A stretch of 64,000 nt of DNA from a virus, in IMG/VR virus record IMGVR_UViG_3300035660_000002, positions 1-64,000 of that record; one strand, given 5' to 3'. The notes under the pieces were generated by a model. It was not told the DNA's origin. It saw only the letters and a program-made list of their open reading frames with translations, and made no database searches. This document shows positions 2,643 through 63,674 of the stretch, piece after piece (position 1 is the stretch's first letter; the number at the start of each line of letters is the position of its first letter). The translations under genes were made by a program, and so were the position numbers.

Positions 2643-3404
2643 TTAGTTATCCTTCATCCGGTCTATGCCGGAGATTATATTTACATCCTCCGGCGGCACT
2701 TCCAATGTCTTTCCGTTGCTGTCGAACTTGACCTCGAGTTCGCCGCCGTCATGATCTGTCACTACACCTTTCGATCCTTGTGGCATAGTAAATGACACAT
2801 ACTTAACGTCACGCTTCAAAGAGACGCGCTTGTCAACAAACTTGGAGATGTCGCCGCGCTTTTCGGCTACCTCCGAGGCAAAGATTTTATTCCATTCAGC
2901 GATTGCCCTGCGGTATGACCCATCGCCCTTTTTCATCAAAGGAGATGGCTTTCCTGTAAAGATGTTTGGTAATTTTGCGGCAGGACTATTGTTATAAGCG
3001 TCCATTCCGGCATTAGCATAATCTTCCGCCGACTTAAAATTTCCCGGCTCTAATGCTACCTTCCCCTCATCCGCACAGTTGTAGGAAACTTCCCCTGTCG
3101 TTCTGTTCTTTCTGTAGCATTCCGGTCCGCCACAATGAGGGCATACTGATTCATTCGTATCCACTTCAAACACCTTCAGCAACTTATCGATCAGCTGATC
3201 CTGCTCCTCAGAGAAATGCCAGCGCACGTCCTTTTGCTTGTTGTACCATTCCCGGGCCGTGTTGTTCTTGAGCTCCTCACTCATCGCCTGCCAGTCCGCT
3301 ACCATCTCTGCTATGTCGATCGGAGGCATCCGTGTCGCGTCTACCACAAAGTCCGACTCGTCCCGGTCTTTCGGATCTAGTAGTCTAACTTGTGTGTTAC
3401 CCAC
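2643..3404 (-). CDS. C-terminal part of HEG-split polyprotein: end of HD-like (DUF5662-type) domain, Zn finger, SH3/KOW-like domain
   Basis: MPPIDIAEMVADWQAMSEE completes the HD-like domain begun in 4175-6685; own AGGAG RBS and GTG start inside the end of the GIY-YIG ORF; CPHCGGPEC; terminal SH3-like module. Confidence 0.72.
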   Translation of the reverse strand: MGNTQVRLLDPKDRDESDFVVDATRMPPIDIAEMVADWQAMSEELKNNTAREWYNKQKDVRWHFSEEQDQLIDKLLKVFEVDTNESVCPHCGGPECYRKNRTTGEVSYNCADEGKVALEPGNFKSAEDYANAGMDAYNNSPAAKLPNIFTGKPSPLMKKGDGSYRRAIAEWNKIFASEVAEKRGDISKFVDKRVSLKRDVKYVSFTMPQGSKGVVTDHDGGELEVKFDSNGKTLEVPPEDVNIISGIDRMKDN

Positions 3405-4173
3405 AATGCAAAGCTCCTGTTTTTATTCCTTTGTTCCAAGGTATTTTTCCTATATGTGCATCTCTGTTTTTATCATTAGATTCTTTTGTATGGTGCTTCC
3501 CAAAGAATGGATGCTTTTCTCCAACTCGTCCAATCATCCCATTCTTCTTTCTGAGTTCCCAATCAGTATTTCCTTGCTTAAAACCACCATATCGGCACTT
3601 GCGACCCAGTACCCACCCGTCCACTTTATATTTATCTACATCTTCCTGCTTGACGAATGCCGCCATGCCCAAAACCAGATTGTGCATATGCTTACTACCA
3701 GCTGGGCCTTTATTTATTTTCCGCACACACCGAAGCCGTTCTGCCTGAGCTATTTTTACTTTCTCTGATCTGTTCTTTGCAGCAACGCTCTGCTTTCTCC
3801 GTGTTTCTTCAGACATCTTTTTACCAAACGATGGACTACCTACTCCCCGTCTACCGTACATAGGGTTAGCGCTGCCTTTTCTGCACACTCCAGTGTCCCC
3901 GCCATCCCCACCCACAGCTATATTGTAACACTGGTCTTTACCAAAAATCTTTTTATACTCTGCAATATATATCTTTTCTAGTTCGTTCAACTTTACTATA
4001 TCTTCTGCTCTGGCTATCACTTCTACTCTAAACACAGTTGCGCCGTACTTTCGTAAAGCTCTAATCAAACGTAAGCCAGATCCGTAGTAGTGCTGCACAA
4101 AGTTACCTTTCTTTTTCCCAATATACACAGATCCATTAACTGTATTTATCGTTTTGTAAATATATCCAAACAT
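3397..4173 (-). CDS. GIY-YIG homing endonuclease with NUMOD3 repeats
   Basis: GYIYKTINTVNGSVYIG, HYYGSG, LNELEKIYI and YNIAVGG motifs, then NUMOD3-like segments (MSEETRRKQS, KHHTKES); AT-rich; probable start ATG 4173. Confidence 0.92.
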   Translation of the reverse strand: MFGYIYKTINTVNGSVYIGKKKGNFVQHYYGSGLRLIRALRKYGATVFRVEVIARAEDIVKLNELEKIYIAEYKKIFGKDQCYNIAVGGDGGDTGVCRKGSANPMYGRRGVGSPSFGKKMSEETRRKQSVAAKNRSEKVKIAQAERLRCVRKINKGPAGSKHMHNLVLGMAAFVKQEDVDKYKVDGWVLGRKCRYGGFKQGNTDWELRKKNGMIGRVGEKHPFFGKHHTKESNDKNRDAHIGKIPWNKGIKTGALHCG

Positions 4174-4174
4174 T

Positions 4175-6685
4175 CTATAAATTCCTTCTGTATTCTTCCC
4201 CTTCAACTGACCAATATTCTGGGTGATGTTTATTCGTAAAAATGTGCCTCTCAGTCGCTTTGTTCTCGTCTTCATCCGGCAGCGTGCCCGGAGTCTTGTA
4301 GCTCTTAAAGTTATCCTGCTTGTGCCGCCACGATATCTTTATGTAGGGCGTACGCTCCGGCTCCTCGAGCTTGGATGCATCATGATGCTCCACCTGAGCC
4401 ATCAGGTCGCCACAGTCCGCGCCATTCAGAATATGCGCCTGCTCTAGCCTCTTGGCCGCTGCCTGTACGAGAGCTATATGCTTGGCCGTGCGTTCCTCGA
4501 AGTATTTTTCCTTCTCTTCTTGGCTTGCGTCGGCTTCCTGCAGACGTTCCAAGTCCTCTATGAAATATGTAAAGGTTGCGCCTCTCTTTGTGCGCACCTG
4601 AGCTTTGTCACGAGATACAAGTTCCACTGTTCCTTCAAGTCCCTGGTCGTCGCCGATCTTGACACGGACTTTATCGCCCTCTTTGACAGATTCTTGTGCA
4701 TTGGCTTTATGAATGTTCGGGTTAGGATTGTCCGCGAATTTCTTTGATGCCACACCATCCTTGATCTCTTTCACATAGTCAATGTCACCGCCGTTTATGA
4801 CACTCCAGCTCTTAAAATGCTCATCACAGAACCATGCATGCGCCATGCCCTCTGCCCACTTAACTTCCTTTGTCGGTGGCTTGTCGCACTCCATACACTT
4901 ATCATGACTATGACTTTCATTCACGGATTCCTTCGCTCTCTCTTTGCCTTTTAGGAACTCGGCACCTTTCTTGACCGCTCCGACTGCGCCTCGCGCGCCC
5001 TTCTCCGCTGCCCACACATCCTTCATGAAGAACCTTTTGATGTGCCCGGCCATTGTGCTCTTATAGAATGGTATGACATCAAACATGAGCTGTGAGTGCT
5101 TGCACATAATGCCGTACTGCTTCGGGTTCCTGATCCTTGGAGGCCTATTCTCCGGCTCACCATACTTCGTGCCACGCTGTGTTGTGGTATACGCCGGACC
5201 CCAATATTGGAAGGAAGGACAATTATGGACAAACACGCCTGCAGCAACGAGGAAGTTATGACTATCTTCCACAAATAAATCGTAGACTGGTACTTCTTTA
5301 TCCAAATCTATTATAGTGATCTTTACTACCTTATGATTATGCATCTTCAAGAACTTTCCAGTAATAGGATCCCGTGGCCATGCTTTATTACGCTCTGTCG
5401 TAACTGCACTCGCACGAGCTATTTCTTCTGAGCATGCCCATCTTTTAGCAGACGCCTCTTTCATGCGTTCACGAGTTTCCTCCGATATCTTTCTATTCTG
5501 CCCTGCTTTTATAATACTTTCCCTATTTTTTGGGTTCTTCCACATGTTCTTCATCTGCGCACTAAAAAACTTCCTACCCTCTGCACTCTGGACGAAAGCA
5601 ACGCCCTTCTCATTAAAATGCTTTACGACATCCGGTCTCTTCTCAGCAAATATTCTTCCTGCGTTTGCGTTCCGAATGCTCATCTCTTTTCTAAACTGCG
5701 GATCGTTACGCGCTTTCTCTATGCTTTTGATAACATTCTGCTTACCTAATCTTGCGTGATAATACCAATGCTCAAGACGTCCCATCCATCCCTGATTTTC
5801 TGGTCGATTATCTAATGTATTAAAGTTCTTATGATGAACTGTAAGCCACTTTTCTTTTCCACTTCTCACGAGTTCGTATTTTTTATCATATTGATCTTTC
5901 AGCACAGTCTCAGCAACAATCCTGTGCACCATCTTGAATATTGGCCTGCCCATCCTATCTACTTTTGAATTGTACTTGACCTGCAAGTACTGTTGGGAGA
6001 ACTTCTTGTTTTTACTCAACTTCATATACAATGGCATCAGAGAATCGCCAGTCTTGATCTCCTCTGCTCTCTTATATGTGCCATCTCTCATTCGATACAG
6101 ATGATCTACTGTGCTCTTTATTGTCTTTCCATTATCCAAGGTAACCTCTATCAAATGAGACGTTATCCCTGTAACTCCGAGGCATCTCGCTTTCTTCGGT
6201 GTAAAGTCGCCGTGCTCGTCAGAGGAATATATCCAAAAAGTTTTTGTAGTTCCGTACTCATTCAACATCTCTTCCATGGTAAGCACTCTGCCATCAAGCA
6301 ATGGCACTTTAGTATCGCCAGTCAAACAGCTGCATAGTATCTTAAGGTCGGCCTGATCTACTACGGCCGCGCCGAGTCTCCTCGCGTCAACGCCACTCTT
6401 GTCCTTCTTCCAGTTCCTCATGTCCTGCGCTTCTTTTGCTATTATCTTTCTTATGTCCGCAAATTGCACGGTGACATCATACTTCAGCCCTGCGGTCGTG
6501 GCTGACGTCACCTTGAAGTACCAGACGCCGGCATCTTCTTTTACCAACTTGACGCCGCCTGCGCCTGCCACCTGATCCACACGATCGTAGAACGGTGGAA
6601 AGAGCCGGGTGATAGAGTCCTGCTTCCGCAGTATGCCCCCTATCGGTTCCTCTGACAATTTCCTGGATTCAGCGTATACGTCCAT
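4175..6685 (-). CDS. Intein-containing modular protein: SWIM-type Zn finger domain, Zn ribbon, KOW/SH3 module and N-terminal part of HD-like (DUF5662-type) domain
   Basis: After intein removal reads LCSCPSFQYWG...RNP...MCKH (SWIM-like CxC..CxH); CMECDKP..FCDEH; EGDKVRVKIGDDQGLEGTV; H..HDASKLEEPE..H..NKHHPEYW. Confidence 0.72.
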   Translation of the reverse strand: MDVYAESRKLSEEPIGGILRKQDSITRLFPPFYDRVDQVAGAGGVKLVKEDAGVWYFKVTSATTAGLKYDVTVQFADIRKIIAKEAQDMRNWKKDKSGVDARRLGAAVVDQADLKILCSCLTGDTKVPLLDGRVLTMEEMLNEYGTTKTFWIYSSDEHGDFTPKKARCLGVTGITSHLIEVTLDNGKTIKSTVDHLYRMRDGTYKRAEEIKTGDSLMPLYMKLSKNKKFSQQYLQVKYNSKVDRMGRPIFKMVHRIVAETVLKDQYDKKYELVRSGKEKWLTVHHKNFNTLDNRPENQGWMGRLEHWYYHARLGKQNVIKSIEKARNDPQFRKEMSIRNANAGRIFAEKRPDVVKHFNEKGVAFVQSAEGRKFFSAQMKNMWKNPKNRESIIKAGQNRKISEETRERMKEASAKRWACSEEIARASAVTTERNKAWPRDPITGKFLKMHNHKVVKITIIDLDKEVPVYDLFVEDSHNFLVAAGVFVHNCPSFQYWGPAYTTTQRGTKYGEPENRPPRIRNPKQYGIMCKHSQLMFDVIPFYKSTMAGHIKRFFMKDVWAAEKGARGAVGAVKKGAEFLKGKERAKESVNESHSHDKCMECDKPPTKEVKWAEGMAHAWFCDEHFKSWSVINGGDIDYVKEIKDGVASKKFADNPNPNIHKANAQESVKEGDKVRVKIGDDQGLEGTVELVSRDKAQVRTKRGATFTYFIEDLERLQEADASQEEKEKYFEERTAKHIALVQAAAKRLEQAHILNGADCGDLMAQVEHHDASKLEEPERTPYIKISWRHKQDNFKSYKTPGTLPDEDENKATERHIFTNKHHPEYWSVEGEEYRRNL
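5222..6328 (-). mobile_element. Intein (369 aa) with HNH-type endonuclease
   Basis: Starts CLTGDTK, block B TVDHLY, ends VYDLFVEDSHNFLVAAGVFVHN followed by Cys; internal VHRIVAE..VHHKNFNTLDNRPEN HNH motif. Confidence 0.92.
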
Positions 6686-48013: not shown

Positions 48014-48825
48014 CTATACAGATACATTTTTCTTTGTTTTGTCCACAAGTTTACTTATAAAGTGCTCTTTCCAATGCTCTCTGTTGAAGTTAACCCGGGA
48101 GTTACACGCTTTGCATAAAGAATTCAAGTTATTCTTATCACAATTTTTCTTATCATAGTCTATGTGATGCACGTGCAAAGGTATGCCATACACTATCAAA
48201 TGCTCTTCTTCAGTCATACCACAACATTGACAAGTATGTTCATCACGTTTCCGTATCTCCCCCTTCAGCACATCATTAAATTCAAAAGGATAGGGCTCAT
48301 TAGAAACACCACCACGCCACCGATGACTCTTCGGTCCCTTCTGAGCTTCGCTCATCTTTTTAATAGATTCAGTCGAAAACTTTCTTCCTTTAAGTGCTTT
48401 ACTTATTAACTGCCTACTTTCCTCTGTATGATGTTTTCCAAGAAAGTTTGTATTTCCTATAACTCCTGCCCTGATCTTATCCTTCTCCTCCTCGGTACGG
48501 TGCCTTCCTAAAACATATTTTTGTTTAGACATGCGATTCCGAAGTTCTATGAGGCACCCCGCAGAGAGCTTATGTTTTGTTCCCAAACCAACGCCTGGTC
48601 TTTTTCTTCCCCTCAACTTAACTTATCGCCTATCTTTCTTTTATGTTCCTCAGACATCTTCTTTCCTGTCATTCGAGGAGAGTAGTAATCAAGCTTTCTA
48701 CCCTTGTTCCAAGGAACTTGCCCCTTCTTAAATTCCCCTTCTACGCATCTACGAACACCTTTTTGAAATTTTCCTTTGATCCTGCTCTTATGCCAGGCAG
48801 TCCTGACATATACACCTCTAGGCAT
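48014..48825 (-). pseudogene. NUMOD3-HNH homing endonuclease frameshifted by a 5-bp duplication
   Basis: GAT AAGTT AAGTT GAGG at 48615-48624; removing one copy joins ORF 48613-48825 to 48014-48616 (IGDKLRGRKR); IRKRDEHTCQCCG..LHVHHIDYDK. Confidence 0.82.
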
Positions 48826-52238: not shown

Positions 52239-52481
52239 TCACTCCAATCCAAGGTGCTTGTCACAAACCCATCCTTCGTCGCGTACATGCATCATATGCT
52301 TGTGCTGCCGAACCTTAGAACATCGAGCACACCTGCTATATTCGTCCGGATGCAGGGGCATTTGCCCTTCACATCCCCAATCATAGATATGCTCAAAGTT
52401 CGTCAACACAGCATACCCGACAGCAAATAGCAGTATAACGATAATTCCGGCACTCATGATCTCTAGACTTATTGCTCTCAC
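52239..52481 (-). CDS. Membrane-anchored Zn-finger protein
   Basis: TM helix, CARC..VCDKH. Confidence 0.55.
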   Translation of the reverse strand: MRAISLEIMSAGIIVILLFAVGYAVLTNFEHIYDWGCEGQMPLHPDEYSRCARCSKVRQHKHMMHVRDEGWVCDKHLGLE

Positions 52482-52484
52482 AAG

Positions 52485-52763
52485 TTACCCCTGCGGTGGC
52501 GCCTCCACCTTCTGAAGAGAAGACACTCTCGGCCAGTACAGCTTCTTTCCGCCCTTTACTCCCGTGACTAACACGAGATAGCTTTCATGGTTACGAGCCA
52601 TTCCGTCAAACTGGCAACTCACATGCGAAACCTCCGTATCACGAATTACATTACACGGATTTAAGCTTGGAGGAACTACCAATGCAACAACCCCTTCCTT
52701 CGCTTTCGTGTATCCTGCGGCCTGACTTGCCCACTGCACTTTATCCCCGACTTTTAATTCCAT
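52485..52763 (-). CDS. SH3-like hypothetical protein
   Basis: LKVGDKVQWASQAAG..RNHESYLV..LYWPRVS. Confidence 0.65.
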   Translation of the reverse strand: MELKVGDKVQWASQAAGYTKAKEGVVALVVPPSLNPCNVIRDTEVSHVSCQFDGMARNHESYLVLVTGVKGGKKLYWPRVSSLQKVEAPPQG

Positions 52764-52764
52764 G

Positions 52765-54093
52765 CTATCCTCCTTTGATCTCTTTCCATGTTTTGTTATC
52801 GCCTGCCCGGACAGGATCCTTGCCCGTGAACTCCTGCCACCGATCCAATATTATTCCGCAATATACAGGAGCTATCTCCATCATATAGCACTTCCGAAGC
52901 ATTATCTCGGCCGCCACCATAGAAGAGCCGCTTCCGCCGAATATGTCCACGATTATTTCATCGCGCCGGGTGTACAGCAGAAGATGCCTTGTGACCAGTT
53001 CTATCGGGAATGCCGCCACATGCCCTGTCTGCGTCGCATTGCCCCGGATATCGTTCCAAAACCCCTTTAGGGCCCACTTCTGCCCTGTCCTGAACGATCC
53101 CCTGCTTATGCCATCCCTGTTGTAGAACGTCTCAAGGATGTTGATATCATCCTCTGCCAGCTTGTCCTCGAACTTCATATCCACACCTTCGTCGTTCTCA
53201 AAGGTACCTATAAATTCGCTGTGCTGATCTATCAAGTCCGACCGCAGGTCGACCGACCGCAGCTGCCCTCCCTTTATCCAATGCCGGATGTGCCGCAGGT
53301 TCCATCCAAGAGCAAACAGATTGTTCGTCCACTTGTCAATCAGGAGCATCACCTGCCTCTTATGCTTCTTGTCAAATGCTGTCGTGAACCCGGTGCCTGT
53401 ATTGATCACGATCCTGGAATCGTCCTTCTTTACGATAGTCACCATGGCCACACAGATGTCATGAATGAACTTATCTATCTCAGGGACGGATTTTTGAGTT
53501 TCGTATGCCTTCCCAACCCAATATGGTGGGCTCGAAAACAGCAAGCTCGCCTGCTTGCCGTCCATAAGCTTTTCGAGATCCGTGATACTTGTTGAATCCC
53601 CGCATAGAAGCCTATGCTCTCCAAGCACAAACAGATCGCCGCGCACCACATATTCCTTTGGCAGCGGTTCTGGTATCTTGTCCGGATCCTTCTCCTCGCC
53701 GGAGTTCTCAAGTATCCTATCCAGCTCCTCTTTGCTGAATCCAACATCCTTCAGCATCGCTTCCGTATATTCATTCAGCTTGGCCCAATCCCATTCCGCG
53801 AATTCCTGAGCCTTATTATCCGCAAGTATGAACCTGGTCCTCTGGTCGGGCGTCATTCCCGATATCTTTATAACAATGGGTATGACTACTCTTCCAACCT
53901 TCACCATCGCCTTGTATCTTGTGTTTCCCGCGAGTATCGTATCCGTCTCATCCACTATGATCGGACTAATGTAATCCGAAGATTGTATACTTTTTATAAC
54001 TTCCTGCACCGCTTTTTCGTTTTGCCTGGGGTTATCAATATTCAATTTAATTTTTTCTATAGGCACATCTGTAAGTACTTCTCTTGCTATCAT
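52765..54093 (-). CDS. ParB-N domain DNA methyltransferase (N4/N6, beta class)
   Basis: IIVDE..ILAGNTRYKA ParB-like domain; FSSPPYW; HVAAFP; VDIFGGSGS. Confidence 0.9.
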   Translation of the reverse strand: MIAREVLTDVPIEKIKLNIDNPRQNEKAVQEVIKSIQSSDYISPIIVDETDTILAGNTRYKAMVKVGRVVIPIVIKISGMTPDQRTRFILADNKAQEFAEWDWAKLNEYTEAMLKDVGFSKEELDRILENSGEEKDPDKIPEPLPKEYVVRGDLFVLGEHRLLCGDSTSITDLEKLMDGKQASLLFSSPPYWVGKAYETQKSVPEIDKFIHDICVAMVTIVKKDDSRIVINTGTGFTTAFDKKHKRQVMLLIDKWTNNLFALGWNLRHIRHWIKGGQLRSVDLRSDLIDQHSEFIGTFENDEGVDMKFEDKLAEDDINILETFYNRDGISRGSFRTGQKWALKGFWNDIRGNATQTGHVAAFPIELVTRHLLLYTRRDEIIVDIFGGSGSSMVAAEIMLRKCYMMEIAPVYCGIILDRWQEFTGKDPVRAGDNKTWKEIKGG

Positions 54094-54694
54094 AAAAACC
54101 CCTCTCTTTCATTTTGTTACTATAAAATTCTTTCCAGTAACCTCGGTTACTATTAGCCCGAATATTGCACCAAAAGCACAAAGTTATCAAATCCTTCTGC
54201 GCAACACTACTCTTATCATAATCTATATGATGTACATTCAGAACTTTACCTAAGACAATCAAGTGTTCTTCTTCCGTCATCCCACAGTTCTGACATGTGT
54301 AGTCATCCCTTTTCCGTATCCCATCCCGAAGTTTTGAATCGAACTCAAAGTGGTAAGGTGCCCTTGATACTCCGCCGTGCCAATTCGGATTATTCTTTCC
54401 TACATGGAATTTTGTGGCACACGGTTTACATCTCGCCACACCGTAATCAGACAGCTTTGCTCCGCAGTCAACACACTTCGGTTTCCCTCCCTTCCACCTA
54501 GGGTGCCTATCCCCAAGCAAAGATTTACTAATCTTGTTTCTTGATTTATTAGAATGATGATGCCCTGCAAAATGACTAGGCTTACCTTTCATAGCTAAAC
54601 TCAGCTTATCCTTATGTGCGGCAGACAACTTCACCCCAATCTTTGATAATCGTATCTTTCTTTTAGTTTCCGCACTGCACTTTCTGCCCCTCAT
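54047..54694 (-). CDS. NUMOD3-HNH homing endonuclease
   Basis: IRKRDDYTCQNCG..LNVHHIDYDK..LITLCFWCN..NRGYW. Confidence 0.9.
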   Translation of the reverse strand: MRGRKCSAETKRKIRLSKIGVKLSAAHKDKLSLAMKGKPSHFAGHHHSNKSRNKISKSLLGDRHPRWKGGKPKCVDCGAKLSDYGVARCKPCATKFHVGKNNPNWHGGVSRAPYHFEFDSKLRDGIRKRDDYTCQNCGMTEEEHLIVLGKVLNVHHIDYDKSSVAQKDLITLCFWCNIRANSNRGYWKEFYSNKMKERGFYDSKRSTYRCAYRKN

Positions 54695-54801
54695 ATGCTT
54701 TTCACTACTTGGTCGATCGCCTCATCATTGACCCTCGGATTGTTAGGGTTGAGCTTTATGGATCCTATCGGTACGTCTTTCAACACGTCTCTTGTTATCA
54801 T
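54691..54801 (-). pseudogene. Orphaned original N-terminus (36 aa) of the ParB-methylase, cut off by the HNH insertion
   Basis: Own translation MITRDVLKDVPIGSIKLNPNNPRVNDEAIDQVVKSI*, 22/36 identical to the first 36 aa of 52765-54093; own AAGGAG RBS; TGA overlaps the HNH ATG. Confidence 0.85.
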
Positions 54802-55099
54802 GCCCTCTCCTTTGTGCTCTTAGTTTTATCAAATCCTTTCTAAGAGATTCATTTACCTGTTTAATTATAGAGACCACATTCCTAGCGTTATTCCATCTGG
54901 TTGATTGCATACCAATAAATATTCCTTGAATCCTATGCATACCATCTTCAAGTTCATATACTCCAAACTGGTCACGCTTCTTAAGGTACTTAACCATCTT
55001 GTTATACACTACAACAAGCTCGTACATGAGTTGATCTTCTTCTGCGGTCCTATACATCGGTGTCAGCTGTGGGAACCTCCGCCAGTACACTTTTTTCAT
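54743..55099 (-). CDS. Hypothetical protein
   Basis: 118 aa ORF. Confidence 0.55.
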   Translation of the reverse strand: MKKVYWRRFPQLTPMYRTAEEDQLMYELVVVYNKMVKYLKKRDQFGVYELEDGMHRIQGIFIGMQSTRWNNARNVVSIIKQVNESLRKDLIKLRAQRRGHDNKRRVERRTDRIHKAQP

Positions 55100-55101
55100 C
55101 T

Positions 55102-55371
55102 TTATGAACTCCTCGGACTTTTCTGCGCTGTATAAATGACCCGGGCTATTGCACTTTTTACAGTTTCACTGCCCCCCATGTAATCCAGATATATAACCTT
55201 TACAATTTCTTTTTCGCTCAGTCCCACTCCATGTTCTGTGACAGATTGAAGCACAGAACGAGCATCGGTCAATGCCTGCCTGTAATCAAGCTTGCTTCCT
55301 AAACGGAAACCGCCCTTGTCTATCAAGTCGGTCAATGCTTCGATGCTGTTTTTCAATCTTTGAGAATTCAT
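55102..55371 (-). CDS. Hypothetical protein
   Basis: 89 aa ORF with AAGGAG RBS. Confidence 0.55.
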   Translation of the reverse strand: MNSQRLKNSIEALTDLIDKGGFRLGSKLDYRQALTDARSVLQSVTEHGVGLSEKEIVKVIYLDYMGGSETVKSAIARVIYTAQKSPRSS

Positions 55372-55473
55372 CTTCGTGCTCCTTTCAAATTAGAGATTCA
55401 TCCTCTGCCAAAATAGTGATAACTGTCACTGATTCTCCGAAGTGCAACATCGCACTCGACTGCACAATACTCA

Positions 55474-55668
55474 CTACTTTCTTATCCTTAATCCATTGCC
55501 CTTCTCTATCGCTTCCGTGACACAATGAATGCACACACAGTTCTTATCCAAGTTGTGCAGTGATACCCATACCTCCCGACCGCACTTGCAGCACGGCACC
55601 AGCACATAATTAAATATGTGCTCATCCTCTTTACTTACACAAAGCACATAAATTTTAGGCTTACTCAA
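55474..55668 (-). CDS. Small Zn-finger protein
   Basis: CCKCGREVW..CVCIHC; TTG start overlaps the HNH stop. Confidence 0.5.
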   Translation of the reverse strand: MSKPKIYVLCVSKEDEHIFNYVLVPCCKCGREVWVSLHNLDKNCVCIHCVTEAIEKGNGLRIRK

Positions 55669-56353
55669 CTTTTAGTTTCTCCATCCAAATATCACGATTG
55701 TGGTTCGTCGTCACGTGGCATGTATGACACAAAGAAATCAAATTATTAGATCTTAAATTCTTCTTATCGTAGTCAATATGATGAACATCCAGTTTCCTAA
55801 AGCAGTCCTCTTCGTGCTTACCACACACCTGGCACTTTCTCCCGTCTCGATCCCGGATCTTTTCTTTGAATGCCTTTGTCCATCCAACGGCGTAAGGCTT
55901 GCTTGATATACCACCCCGCCAAAGAGGACTCTTATTCCCAACAAATCTTTTGCTCATATCTAATGAGTAACATTTTTTGTTGCAGTATCGCTGATCTCTA
56001 CAATACGTCTTAAAAGTCTTACCACATCCCGCACAAGAAATAACAGCAGGAGGATTCATCTTAGCTCGACATTTCCATCCACAGTATTTAACTATCCTAA
56101 GTCTTCCTCCAAATTTACCATTTTGCTCTTTTACCGACCTAAACTTTTTTCCGCATACCAAGCATTTTTTTATTGGGGCTCTCCTCGTATGTGGATAGTG
56201 CTTTCCTTTCTTCGTAGACCCGGCAGCACTAATATATTTGTACCGACACGCCTTACTGCATGTTTTCTGTGTAATTGCTCTGCATGCCGCCTGTGCATAA
56301 AACTCTTTGCCGCAAACTCTGCATACCAAACGAGGCCTAACGATCTTTCTCAT
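55661..56353 (-). CDS. HNH homing endonuclease (CxxC repeats)
   Basis: IRDRDGRKCQVCG..LDVHHIDYDKKN..NLISLCHTCH..NRDIW. Confidence 0.9.
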   Translation of the reverse strand: MRKIVRPRLVCRVCGKEFYAQAACRAITQKTCSKACRYKYISAAGSTKKGKHYPHTRRAPIKKCLVCGKKFRSVKEQNGKFGGRLRIVKYCGWKCRAKMNPPAVISCAGCGKTFKTYCRDQRYCNKKCYSLDMSKRFVGNKSPLWRGGISSKPYAVGWTKAFKEKIRDRDGRKCQVCGKHEEDCFRKLDVHHIDYDKKNLRSNNLISLCHTCHVTTNHNRDIWMEKLKVE

Positions 56354-56358
56354 TTTAT

Positions 56359-57711
56359 TTATTCCACTTTCAGTTTGTTTGTATCGTAAGACTGCCCATT
56401 ACATATTATTGACAACATCGGATACATAGTATACATTCTTCTTAGAACAACGTCCACATATTTCTTTTCACAATCCATTGCGTAGCATACCCTACTATTT
56501 TCCTGCGCGGCAATCATAGTGCTGCCTCCACCACAGAAAGGATCCAACACTATCGATCCTCTATGCGAACTCGCCATAATTGCCTTCGCGCATAAATTTA
56601 TGGGCTTCTGATTCGGATGCCACGGTGTCTTGCTTGGTTTCTTCTCCCTCCACACATCTGTCTCGCCGCGCTTGCTCACAATCTTTCCGGTGACCATGCC
56701 ATCCAGCTCGATGTGGTAGTCCCCCACCCGTATTATAGTTTTCTTGCCGTCAAAGACCGGGTGTATCGCCTCGATCCCTTCCCATACGTTCCCCTCATCG
56801 CGCCATCCTGAGAAGTAGTGGCTCTTATTCTTGCCGTTCCATCCATACATGATGGGCTCGTACTGGTTCTGCCAGTCACACCTTGAGAGAGTGAATGTGT
56901 TCTTTACCCATATGATATTCGCCTGCCAGTGCCCGCCACACTCCACAAATGCCTTCTTGAGCTGCCCTATTTCCTTCGAGCTCATGCATATGTAGAAGCA
57001 CCCCTCACAGACCTCCATCATCGGCGCGATCACGCCCTTCAAGAATGCGAAGAACTGTTCCTCTGTCATGTCGTCGTTCACGATCTTATCCCTAAGATGT
57101 TTACCCCCCTCACTCGACATCCCACCCTCATAATTTATGTTATAAGGCGGATCCATAAATATCATGTCGATCTTCTTTCCGTCAATGAGCTTTGCGTAGT
57201 CCTCCCTCTTAGATGCATCCCCGCATAGTATCCTATGCTCGCCTATCTGAAATAGATCCCCCATCTTAATATCCACGTTCTCGCGGACATCGACCGGCAC
57301 TCTATACTCGTCCTTGTCGCCCGGGTTCATGATCTTGTCCAGCTCTGCGTCTGTAAATCCCACATCCGCAAGCAACTCCTCCGTAAATATCGCCATCTTT
57401 TCCCAGTCCCATTCCGCAAACTCCTGCGTCTTGTTGTCAGCCAGGATGAAACGCATCTTCTGCTTATCCGACATTCCTTTCATCCGGATAACCGTCGGTA
57501 TCGTTGTCCTTCCGAGAGATATCATCGCCTTGTATCGAGTGTTACCCGCCAGTACCTCATTGTTCTCGTCTACGATGATCGGAGTTATAAATTCAGAATC
57601 CTTAATACTTTTGATGACCTCTACGACCGCCTCTTCGTTCTTCCGAGGATTGTTAGGATTAAGTTTTATGTCCTTGATCGGAATATCCGTAAGCACTTCA
57701 CGCGTTATCAT
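56359..57711 (-). CDS. ParB-N domain DNA methyltransferase (N6, beta class), paralogue of 52765-54093
   Basis: ILAGNTRYKA; IFMDPPYN; HPNQKP; VLDPFCGGGST; start revised to ATG 57711. Confidence 0.92.
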   Translation of the reverse strand: MITREVLTDIPIKDIKLNPNNPRKNEEAVVEVIKSIKDSEFITPIIVDENNEVLAGNTRYKAMISLGRTTIPTVIRMKGMSDKQKMRFILADNKTQEFAEWDWEKMAIFTEELLADVGFTDAELDKIMNPGDKDEYRVPVDVRENVDIKMGDLFQIGEHRILCGDASKREDYAKLIDGKKIDMIFMDPPYNINYEGGMSSEGGKHLRDKIVNDDMTEEQFFAFLKGVIAPMMEVCEGCFYICMSSKEIGQLKKAFVECGGHWQANIIWVKNTFTLSRCDWQNQYEPIMYGWNGKNKSHYFSGWRDEGNVWEGIEAIHPVFDGKKTIIRVGDYHIELDGMVTGKIVSKRGETDVWREKKPSKTPWHPNQKPINLCAKAIMASSHRGSIVLDPFCGGGSTMIAAQENSRVCYAMDCEKKYVDVVLRRMYTMYPMLSIICNGQSYDTNKLKVE

Positions 57712-57943
57712 ACGTTCCCCCTCTTTCAATAAATTTTATAGTCTCATCCGCGTCAAACCAACTTCCGAGCATTACCCGACCGGATATCCTGATAATCCAC
57801 CTTCTGAAAAATCCCATGCGCTTTCCTATGCTTTGCACGCTGCTTTTTTTATCAGTATTGCTTTTGTGCGTCTGCCATCCATCCAAATATCCAAGCATAT
57901 AAAAAAGAAGCGCAAGGAACCCTAAAAATATCAGTCTACTCAT
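57698..57943 (-). CDS. Small membrane protein
   Basis: N-terminal TM helix. Confidence 0.5.
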   Translation of the reverse strand: MSRLIFLGFLALLFYMLGYLDGWQTHKSNTDKKSSVQSIGKRMGFFRRWIIRISGRVMLGSWFDADETIKFIERGGTYDNA

Positions 57944-59369: not shown

Positions 59370-59726
59370 TTACCCTCCTTTTTTTGTTTTACAGTTACAA
59401 TACCCTTCTGGCGGTTCTTCCATCATCTTTGATTTTCCAAAATACTTATATGGTTTTTTGCATTGTGGGCAGTGCATAGATTCCTTAGAAAAGCATTCCA
59501 CATCCGCACTCGTCAAACGAGCAACAGCTCCTTGTTCATGCTCTCCTCGTTTCTGCTCGTATACGAAACTCTGCAGATATCTGCACCCTCTCCGAATACA
59601 CTCTTGTGCCTTACTGTCCGATACTATCCTGTTCTTGAAGTCCTCGCTGTACCTACATTGGTACTTCAAACACCTATACCTTAGCATGTCACAGCCACCC
59701 ATTCGTCTGCGCAAATTGAAGATCAC
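59370..59726 (-). CDS. Cys-rich hypothetical protein
   Basis: Several CxxxC and CxxC motifs. Confidence 0.5.
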   Translation of the reverse strand: MIFNLRRRMGGCDMLRYRCLKYQCRYSEDFKNRIVSDSKAQECIRRGCRYLQSFVYEQKRGEHEQGAVARLTSADVECFSKESMHCPQCKKPYKYFGKSKMMEEPPEGYCNCKTKKGG

Positions 59727-60984
59727 ACATTGTCATGAGGTTCAGATCACAGAAAATCTCCGCCTCCATGCCTGCGTAGTAGTCCCTGTTCTTCAGTACC
59801 GCCACGCGCATCCTCTTCAATAATACCTCGTCCGGCGTCTGGTTCAAGCTCAATACCACATCCGAGCTCTGCACCTTGCCGTAGCTTTCGCCCACATCCA
59901 TCACTCCTACCAGCACTTTCTTGCTTGAGTCTCGATTTGACTGCGTGGCTGTGATTATGGGCACACCTCGCGTCAAAGGTATCTCACGCAAATCGTCCAC
60001 AATCAGACGCCAGTATGAAAAACCCTCCTTCTGCCTAATGCTCTTGGTCCTACTAGTCATAAGATCCAAATGATCTATCAGTATCACCTGCGGGATGAAT
60101 CCCCCTCGCATCTCCAGCTTCATCAGCTCCATCTTCAGATCTTCTGCACTGAAGCTGTTCGCCGGGAAGTACACGATCTTGCCACTGGCCCCTGGTATCC
60201 CGAAGAACCTATTGAGCCATGTCATCATCGTATCTTCGTTGCCATCTCTCAGAAAATCTTTGTCCTTGTACAGCACTCTCCTGTACAGACGCCTGAGGAT
60301 GTCCACCACTCCCATTTCAAGAGTCACATACAGCACGCTGATCCCCTGCACCATGAACCCATGCATTAGATTGACAAAGAATGCGCTCTTGCCACGCCCG
60401 CTTGGCGCTATGATGCACCACAGCTCTCTCATGCCAGGGCCGCCGTATGTCATCCGGTCCAGCCCCTTTATCATCGTGGGAATACGCTCTGTATCCCTGT
60501 ATTTGATGAGAGGAATGTTCTTCTGGACGTTCCCTGTGTCTACCTCGATCCTGCGCTCTCTGTTGCCCTCTTGGTTGCTGAATAGCAGCTTTTGCAGAGA
60601 CTCTGTTATCTCCTTAGACGACCTCGCATCGAATGTATCCGCTATGCGCACGATCTCATGCTTGATCCTCTGCTTGTTCGCTTGTTCTCGCAACTCTGTC
60701 AACAGCACCTTGTCGTCTATGTTCAATGCGCTATCTACTTTGTACGCCTCGTTTATGTAGCTCTTGTAGTCTGCTATGAACTTCTGCTCGCTATCCGGCA
60801 ACTCCCCGAGGAAAAGCAGCATCTCCTCCCGAGTCGGCATCCTCTCATACTTCTTGAAAAATTCATCCAAGAGCCCCAGCATATTACTTTCTATATTACT
60901 GAGGTCTACCTCTCGAAGCAAATCTCTTGAGTCTATGTAAAATCCCTTAGACCCAACGATTTTTGAAAATACTTTTGCTATCAT
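59689..60984 (-). CDS. dnaB: Replicative helicase, DnaB/T4 gp41-like
   Basis: IAPSGRGKS, YVTLEM, ILIDHLDLM, TATQSNR, ESYGKVQSSD, LKNRD. Confidence 0.9.
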   Translation of the reverse strand: MIAKVFSKIVGSKGFYIDSRDLLREVDLSNIESNMLGLLDEFFKKYERMPTREEMLLFLGELPDSEQKFIADYKSYINEAYKVDSALNIDDKVLLTELREQANKQRIKHEIVRIADTFDARSSKEITESLQKLLFSNQEGNRERRIEVDTGNVQKNIPLIKYRDTERIPTMIKGLDRMTYGGPGMRELWCIIAPSGRGKSAFFVNLMHGFMVQGISVLYVTLEMGVVDILRRLYRRVLYKDKDFLRDGNEDTMMTWLNRFFGIPGASGKIVYFPANSFSAEDLKMELMKLEMRGGFIPQVILIDHLDLMTSRTKSIRQKEGFSYWRLIVDDLREIPLTRGVPIITATQSNRDSSKKVLVGVMDVGESYGKVQSSDVVLSLNQTPDEVLLKRMRVAVLKNRDYYAGMEAEIFCDLNLMTMCDLQFAQTNGWL

Positions 60985-62866: not shown

Positions 62867-63283
62867 TCACTCCTCCATGCTCATGACTTTGAGCTTTATG
62901 CCGTTCTGTGCGATCTTTGTCCAGAACTCGTCCAGGGTCATGCCCGCAAGCTCGTTCCAGCTAAACTCTTTCCCGCCCTTGACCAGTATGTGCGCCTGCA
63001 GAGACTTGTAGAATATGTTCGCCTCTGCCATCGCCGTCACCACGTTGGCCGGGGCCTGAGACTCCTCCCCAGGTATCCTTTCTACAAGCTGCGCCGGGAA
63101 CTTGCCCTTGATCCTTTCATTGAAAAACGAACCGGCCGACTCCGCTTTGAGCAGTTCTTCGTAGATGCTTCTGGGCACTTCGAGGTATCTGTATACTTTG
63201 TCTGATACAAACTTGATAAACATCTCCTGCTTCTCTTCCTGATGTACCGCCTCTTTGATCACACTTGATACGATATGAGCCAT
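62867..63283 (-). CDS. KTSC-domain protein
   Basis: VSSVIK..MFIKFVSDKVYRYLEVPRSIYEELLKAESAGSFFNERIKG. Confidence 0.85.
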   Translation of the reverse strand: MAHIVSSVIKEAVHQEEKQEMFIKFVSDKVYRYLEVPRSIYEELLKAESAGSFFNERIKGKFPAQLVERIPGEESQAPANVVTAMAEANIFYKSLQAHILVKGGKEFSWNELAGMTLDEFWTKIAQNGIKLKVMSMEE

Positions 63284-63561
63284 GTGTGTTTATCCCTTCT
63301 ATCAATACAGATAACGATTCGGTCTATTCGTCCACTTTTTTCCAAGGCTTGATCCACAATATCATCAGTGCTGTTGCTATGATCAGCATGATTGTCTTGT
63401 GGATGTCTTTTATCTTCTGTACTATCCTCACAGGTATTTCCCTCCGTAAAAACTACCGAGACACTCATCCCCAGCCGAAGCACTATCTCTGTGAACTACT
63501 CCCTCTCTTTGTCTCTCTTCAGAGAGAGAAGTATCAGATACATTTACAGAGACTATGATAT

Positions 63562-63614
63562 TTACATTATCAATGTAAGTATTCATTATAAAGTATACAT
63601 GTTGCTATGCAACA
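63562..63614 (-). promoter_or_regulatory. Sigma70-like promoter with two palindromic operator-like sites
   Basis: TTGCAT (63612-63607)-N16-TATAAT (63590-63585); TGTTGC-3-GCAACA over the -35 box; TTACATT-3-AATGTAA downstream of +1. Confidence 0.55.
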
Positions 63615-63674
63615 GCGACACCGACTTCTTCATAGGTATTGACTTCCAATTGGAGTTGGTTATCTCATTAAACT

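Follow-up and report, generated by a model that had tools for sequence, protein, structure and literature searches.

A homing endonuclease gene within a phage methylase reading frame probably brought its own copy of the methylase start

Introduction

How can a homing endonuclease gene lie inside a protein-coding gene and leave the protein whole? Homing endonucleases are thought to be safe in coding sequence only inside introns or inteins, or by splitting the host protein. The question is raised by a locus in IMG/VR virus record IMGVR_UViG_3300035660_000002, of which we analysed positions 1 to 64,000, referred to here as the window; they make up the opening 64 kb of a phage genome that is complete at 133,462 bp and has terminal repeats. 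In the window a ParB-methylase gene, methylase B, is preceded by a free-standing HNH gene, HNH B, and this in turn by a 36-codon open reading frame (ORF), which we term the orphan and which resembles the beginning of methylase B. An earlier sequence-only reading of this DNA had proposed that an HNH homing endonuclease gene inserted, with neither intron nor intein, at codon 36 of the methylase ORF, stranded the old N-terminus and supplied a recoded substitute, and that this was a general strategy in the genome. We favour, with a probability of about 0.68, the view that the region is an in-ORF homing endonuclease cassette, in which the methylase is whole from an imported start and its native start has become a stranded leader.

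Results

The start of methylase B is present on both sides of HNH B

Nearly all genes of the genome are on the minus strand. In the order of that strand the region contains methylase A, a second nuclease gene (HNH A), three small ORFs, the orphan, HNH B and methylase B (Table 1). Methylase B is a single ORF of 442 amino acids (54093-52765, minus strand) with a ParB_N and an N6_N4_Mtase domain. The Pfam match to ParB_N starts at residue 7, and the first 36 codons are therefore integral to that domain. The start codon is 47 nucleotides ahead of the HNH B stop, within the HNH frame, and is preceded by the Shine-Dalgarno (SD) sequence GAGAGGGG; the last 15 codons of HNH B overlap the methylase frame. 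The sequence-only reading had described a 36-codon ORF with its own ribosome-binding site that overlaps the HNH gene by ATGA, and a methylase ribosome-binding site and start embedded in the 3′ end of the HNH gene. The former is present, and the latter can be read directly.

The orphan and codons 1-36 of methylase B are identical at 22 of 36 residues, the figure given by the sequence-only reading, and at 68 of 108 bases. The match has a tblastn E of 1.4e-10, and the Smith-Waterman score of the duplication is 118 where the maximum among shuffles was 39 with 450-nucleotide flanks and 51 with 1000-nucleotide flanks, so that it is well above chance. HNH B is flanked, then, by two copies of the gene end, one in phase with the methylase core and one stranded.

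Table 1. Positions in the window of the cassette and of the neighbouring methylase and nuclease genes.
Feature	Position	Strand	Remarks
SD (GGAG-type) of the stranded, probably native start	54803..54812	-	read directly; 4-12 nt 5′ of the orphan
Orphan: native first 36 methylase codons, with a TGA supplied at the junction	54691..54801	-	probable reading (see text)
ATGA stop/start overlap of orphan and HNH B	54691..54694	-	recurs in related cassettes of L028, L029 and L123
HNH B, free-standing HNH (HNN variant) homing endonuclease gene, 215 aa	54047..54694	-	NUMOD3, CxxC...CxxC zinc site
SD for the methylase restart, within the HNH B 3′ end	54099..54106	-	
Probable replacement methylase 5′ end, codons 1 to ~43	53965..54093	-	GC 0.326, GC3 0.28
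Duplicated part of this 5′ end, codons 1-36	53986..54093	-	
Resident body of methylase B (rest of ParB_N, then N6_N4_Mtase with SPPY and FGGSG motifs)	52765..53964	-	GC 0.50
Methylase A, paralogous ParB_N/N6_N4 methylase	56359..57729	-	ends KLKVE and stop (56376-56359)
HNH A, second HNH homing endonuclease gene	55661..56353	-	5 nt after methylase A

The start in use is foreign in composition

Codons 1-36 of methylase B have a GC content (GC) of 0.324 and a GC content at third codon positions (GC3) of 0.278, against 0.50 and 0.62 in the gene body, whereas the orphan, with a GC of 0.435 and a GC3 of 0.556, is typical of the genome. This bears out the AT-rich codons that had been noticed at the restart. 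This GC is the lowest for the first 36 codons among 138 ORFs, and the 5′ drop in GC is the largest among 118 ORFs. Likelihood analysis puts a change point after codon 42-43, only a few codons from codon 36, at which the orphan stops; its log-likelihood ratio of 7.7 exceeds the 99th percentile of 300 shuffles (6.8) and is below their maximum (9.7). The AT-rich tract continues upstream through the last 75 codons of HNH B (GC 0.34). By composition and change point, the in-phase copy is probably foreign.

Low-GC tracts also occur elsewhere in the window. The gene for a DnaB-like helicase (59689-60984) has the second-largest 5′ drop in GC, its first 129 nucleotides being at 0.357. The 129 nucleotides directly 3′ of another HNH gene at 63.7 kb (63546-63674) are at 0.326, and a KTSC-domain gene farther downstream of it (62867-63283) shows a 5′ drop too. 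No peptide duplication was detected at the helicase or at the 63.7-kb HNH/KTSC sites. All of these may be co-conversion tracts.

The two copies diverged as working gene starts

The orphan is closer to the start of methylase A (25/36 residues) than to that of methylase B, by a small margin. The difference between the two copies flanking HNH B is 0.81 at synonymous sites (pS) and 0.26 at non-synonymous sites (pN), and across all three pairings of the orphan, the methylase B start and the methylase A start pS is 0.81-0.96 and pN 0.17-0.26. With pS saturated and pN low, the copies must mostly have evolved as working gene starts in different genomes. Divergence in place is unlikely because a stranded piece would lose the residues of the family consensus while its silent sites became saturated, and neither copy was recently derived from methylase A since the nucleotide identity of either to the methylase A start is 66-67%. 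By their pattern of substitution, the orphan and the start in use diverged anciently and under selection. The 'recoding' that the sequence-only reading saw as a design is better described as ordinary old divergence with saturated synonymous sites.

HNH B is a free-standing nuclease gene in neither an intron nor an intein

HNH B matches HNH and homing endonuclease families of PHROG (best E 2.6e-17) and has a NUMOD3 modular DNA-binding region at residues 20-56 (E 3.2e-07). Its own match to PF01844 is below threshold; over the catalytic region it is 40% identical to HNH A, which is PF01844-positive, and its HH...N...CxxCN motifs and CxxC pairs are intact. Judged on sequence, HNH B is a bona fide HNH nuclease, with cleavage and homing as predicted activities.

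A search of 52400-57900 with cmscan against Rfam gave no RNA family at E<=1. The interval from orphan to methylase is fully occupied by ORF, and HNH B is in another frame, behind a stop codon. The absence of an Rfam intron, together with the stop codon and the change of frame, means that the gene lies in neither an intron nor an intein, as had been proposed.

An HNH gene at 48014-48729 is a paralogue of HNH B with identical first residues. Upstream of it there are weak NUMOD3 matches in other frames, which suggests that its 5′ part is frameshifted or decaying. Alignment of HNH B with this paralogue left the ends of the cassette undefined.

Relatives that lack HNH B have a single methylase start

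The closest homologue (P0002) is 75% identical. At the DNA level the closest relatives compared were L001 and L029, at 58% identity, and the best allele identity across IMG/VR, JGI metagenome contigs and GTDB genomes was 58-65%. L001 and L029 are broadly syntenic with the window, having methylase A′, small genes, methylase B′ and a primase, and 5′ of methylase B′ they have neither a nuclease gene nor an orphan, just one start. The presence of the HNH gene at the homologous site is thus sporadic. Had relatives free of the endonuclease also contained both copies, the idea of a stranded N-terminus would have been in trouble; they hold a single copy. In alignments to the four closest orthologues the orphan has BLOSUM scores of 105, 119, 120 and 124 and the current start scores of 92, 96, 105 and 107, a lead which is weakly consistent with the orphan being the native copy.

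A family-wide survey of 80 more distant ParB-methylase loci from IMG/VR revealed full-length tandem paralogues and no orphan fragments, and the orphan is therefore not a feature of the family. IMG/VR phages often have ParB-methylase paralogues in tandem pairs of 38-61% identity (L059, L067, L080, L083, L087, L094, L107 and L109). Among GenBank phages the locus had no match by blastn, and tblastn gave relatives of less than 32% identity for the methylase and less than 42% for the HNH protein.

In L028 the methylase B homologue is directly preceded, and overlapped in its start region, by an ORF of 90 amino acids (5745-6017) that by eye has HNH-like motifs. This small ORF is unrelated to HNH B by tblastn and there is no orphan upstream of it. 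The N-terminus of this methylase has an unusual Ile in the NIxNPR motif, as does the current start in the window.

Related cassettes share their junctions

Relatives of HNH B were collected from 21 loci in IMG/VR. In L029 and L028 such nucleases, with 46-60% identity in the catalytic half, interrupt the methylase A homologue close to codon 185. At the 5′ junctions of the cassettes in L028, L029 and L123 the nuclease gene overlaps the upstream host fragment by ATGA. In the window, L028 and L029 the SD and ATG of the restart are at the same conserved Tyr codon of the nuclease tail, within which the window and L028 agree over 19 consecutive bases. Coupling by stop/start overlap and the restart in the tail belong to the element, since they are shared whatever host sequence follows. 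The window differs from the split relatives in that the restart is followed by a homologous replacement gene start.

The methylase A homologue is split into two ORFs by relatives of HNH A and HNH B in L029 (1561-3382), L028 (2069-5657) and L123 (663-2490). A short tail containing CPKC has been added to the upstream half, whereas the downstream half opens with a short CxC extension (CECG or CDCG). These Cys-rich extensions look cassette-borne because the same pair is found at two insertion sites with different nucleases; by analogy with the extensions of MobA, the pair could form one four-Cys zinc ribbon that joins the methylase halves. In L028 the HNH gene that splits the methylase is itself interrupted (3275-4683) by what looks by eye like an IS200/IS605-like pair, with ORFs of 137 and 332 amino acids, which would be a mobile element within a mobile element within a gene.

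Gene ends are duplicated beside other nuclease genes

Methylase A and HNH A (55678-55661) share a terminal KLKVE and stop, with 15 of 18 bases identical. Among 13,530 pairs of ORFs this is the sole shared C-terminal suffix of five residues, and the two genes that share it are adjacent. The last 130-140 nucleotides of methylase A (about 56359-56502) have a GC of 0.34 against 0.49, the most extreme 3′ drop among 118 ORFs. We read the KLKVE at the end of HNH A as the stranded native 3′ end of the methylase gene, fused to the nuclease; the repeat is a short C-terminal counterpart of the orphan. Of 12 IMG/VR loci with a relative of HNH A, 10 have it directly behind an N6_N4 methylase gene in gene order.

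The KLKVE case, to which the sequence-only reading had pointed, is thus real and has longer counterparts in other phages. When compared against the extreme C-termini of methylase family members, the nuclease ORFs of L118 and L124, which are relatives of HNH A, were found to terminate in a methylase C-terminal tail (E 1e-4 and 3e-6), and L119, also with an HNH A relative, has a second copy of the methylase tail downstream (score 119, null 50). Two further cases come from the relatives of HNH B. In L026 (3373-4273) 25 codons of the end of a RusA gene are duplicated across an HNH gene, the in-phase copy having a GC of 0.378 against 0.549 in the core and 0.56 in the stranded copy fused to the nuclease. 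In L022 (3-1600) 24 codons of the end of a family-A DNA polymerase (PolA) gene are stranded.

Within the genome itself the proposed general strategy held in part. It applies to HNH B and to KLKVE, the latter of five codons only, and does not extend to a split gene with a GIY-YIG nuclease, which had been cited as a further case: there the scan of the flanks gave no significant duplication, just a low-complexity, out-of-frame alignment. Likewise, a scan for duplicated peptides in the flanks of nine nuclease-like ORFs was significant for HNH B and for none of the others.

Other features of the genome

All seven PF01844 matches of the 133-kb genome, as well as HNH B and a GIY-YIG-like ORF, are within the first 64 kb. 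These nuclease ORFs span 29195-64000 and 3397-4275 of the window and there are none in the remaining 69 kb; most lie among replication genes (UvsW-like helicase, clamp, primase, DnaB-like helicase, methylases). The frequency of promoter- and terminator-like sites did not exceed that in shuffles, and there was no minus-strand terminator between the two methylases.

Discussion

That the two copies diverged long ago, that the one in use is foreign in composition and that it adjoins the 3′ end of HNH B all agree with the proposal that the old N-terminus was stranded and that a diverged second 5′ end took its place. Invasion could have proceeded as follows. HNH B would cut alleles that lack it somewhere from the KSI to the SPIIVDE codons (34-49), where the sequence is strongly conserved. 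Repair would then copy the nuclease gene with the adjoining methylase 5′ end, and the recipient's own start would stay upstream. The carried 5′ end might belong permanently to an element that moves repeatedly, or one-sided repair might have captured it as a flank on a single occasion. The methylase would be made whole, at 442 amino acids, because the foreign codons 1 to ~43 join the resident body in phase. It would seem likely that the invaded allele is spared from further cutting, as the target has been interrupted and has a new left half; on that side of the junction the copies differ at 5 of 18 bases. The orphan is probably a leader ORF for coupled translation of the nuclease: with its strong SD it would deliver ribosomes, by termination and reinitiation, to the HNH start, which has no SD.

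Several points weigh against this view. The best HNH-free relative for which there is DNA is 58% identical, a distance over which residue matches to orthologues fail to tell the copies apart, the orphan having 17-24 identical residues and the current start 18-22. The support interval of the change point is wide (codons 19-81). The low GC of the start could have a translational cause, though no other gene comes near that value. Finally, we found no second example of this exact cassette, HNH B with a methylase 5′ end, so that joint movement of the 5′ end and the nuclease gene can only be proposed.

The orphan might instead be what is left of a third tandem ParB-methylase paralogue, the body of which was lost when the HNH gene arrived, with the start of methylase B unchanged. 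We regard this as unlikely, although tandem pairs are found in 8 of the 80 IMG/VR loci, two paralogues are already present in this genome and the orphan is slightly nearer to methylase A than to methylase B. Such a remnant requires a deletion of 1.2 kb that stops exactly at the HNH gene, and the syntenic, HNH-free L029 has no third gene 5′ of B′. It also leaves unexplained why methylase B has the most AT-rich gene start and why this ends at codon 42-43, near the orphan's end; a remnant predicts no such break, which would be found there because the insertion brought its own gene start. A somewhat less probable possibility is that the orphan was imported, a donor's 5′ stub having landed with the HNH gene between genes, 5′ of a methylase B that it left intact. 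The failure of orthologue identity to tell the copies apart leaves room for this. The GC and GC3 of the orphan are, however, those of a resident, while the current start shares the foreign AT-richness of the adjoining HNH 3′ end, and the SD and ATG of the methylase are within the HNH coding sequence, where the related cassettes restart.

We think it improbable that the copies arose by local tandem duplication, or by ectopic repair from methylase A, and then diverged in place. The double-strand breaks made by nucleases can set off local rearrangements and the genome does contain three homologous 5′ ends, but saturation of silent sites with low pN in all three comparisons, the retention of family-consensus residues in the stranded copy and the distance of both copies from methylase A are not what such an event would leave. 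That the nuclease sits in a self-splicing intron or an intein, with the orphan as the true first exon or extein, can hardly be entertained: many phage HNH genes are intron-borne, but here, besides the lack of an Rfam match in an interval that is ORF from wall to wall, the HNH gene is in another frame behind a stop and is followed by a complete in-phase start with its own SD. An in-ORF cassette that brought a replacement methylase start accounts best for the locus as a whole.

The kind of element is known from fungal mitochondria and from T4-type phages; what is new here is its 5′-end, phage form. In fungal mitochondria, mobile endonuclease ORFs (mORFs) bring a foreign C-terminal gene end to atp6 of Allomyces macrogynus and to atp6, atp9, cox2 and nad3 of Glomus (PMC3630166). 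As at our locus, a free-standing endonuclease ORF lies in a protein gene without intron or intein, the in-phase copy of the gene end is diverged or foreign, the native copy, at our locus probably the orphan, is stranded past the endonuclease and synonymous divergence is high. Whereas the fungal elements act at the C-terminus, the 5′ end is duplicated here, so that the element must add a stop, an SD and an ATG; it resides in a phage and not in an organelle, and it encodes an HNH nuclease instead of a LAGLIDADG or GIY-YIG one. In Allomyces and Glomus the stranded copy was shown to be native by a nearly identical relative without the endonuclease, whereas our nearest HNH-free DNA is far more distant. 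The KLKVE repeat and the duplications in L026, L022, L118, L124 and L119 match the C-terminal layout of the fungal mORFs exactly, and the orphan is its 5′ mirror image.

The T4-type MobA element in topoisomerase genes 39/60 encodes a homologue of deleted host codons along with extensions and a bypass (10.1101/2022.08.31.505936; reviewed in PMC2988022). Both are HNH cassettes in a phage ORF with an element-encoded, diverged homologue of the target codons (HomR in MobA) and a downstream restart. MobA, however, deletes 55-75 native nucleotides where here the native piece is retained as the orphan, and its host protein is made as two chains that carry extra extensions, whereas methylase B stays one chain. 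MobA also needs a bypass of 50 nucleotides for immunity; no gap or bypass-like feature was seen at this locus. The split methylases of L028, L029 and L123, with their short Cys-rich extensions, are nearer to MobA.

Homing endonuclease genes have also left phage genes in pieces, as with mobE in nrdA of Aeromonas phage Aeh1 and seg in gene 43 of phage 25 (PMC2988022). These too are transposition-like entries of a free-standing gene into a conserved phage gene for replication or DNA metabolism, but they leave two polypeptides that need reassembly, a split which the duplicate gene end avoids here. The Seg and Mob endonucleases of T-even phages cause co-conversion and marker exclusion (PMC2988022), in which donor sequence replaces the host sequence that borders the nuclease gene. 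The AT-richness of methylase A at its 3′ end and of methylase B at its 5′ end is in keeping with this, although ordinary co-conversion leaves no stranded duplicate. The same review of mobile DNA in T4 covers both genes in pieces and co-conversion and does not mention duplication, and in the papers on ICP1 and Skunavirus nucleases there is no account of host gene ends being duplicated. Full-text searches turned up no description of duplicate gene ends stranded next to phage nucleases, though absence from the papers searched is not proof.

A wider interpretation, which we put forward tentatively and at somewhat less than even odds, is that two HNH lineages specialise on phage ParB-methylase genes as standard cassettes able to insert anywhere in an ORF, with ATGA coupling, an SD and ATG for restart, and a cargo that rescues the gene. 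That cargo may be a replacement gene end, 5′ here and 3′ for KLKVE, L118, L124 and L119, or the Cys-rich extensions of L028, L029 and L123. If this is true, gene-end replacement would be a general and undescribed route by which phage homing endonucleases enter coding sequence and move pieces of genes.

For phages, an element that supplies a spare gene end would be a third route into coding sequence. It would explain short 'orphan' ORFs and breaks in composition at gene ends beside nuclease genes, and would narrow the probable site of cleavage to a few codons with no assay needed. Annotators would have a signature to search for, in which a nuclease gene stands between a stranded gene end and an in-phase copy shifted towards AT. 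The locus would also show how such elements build chimeric genes and move gene fragments between phages.

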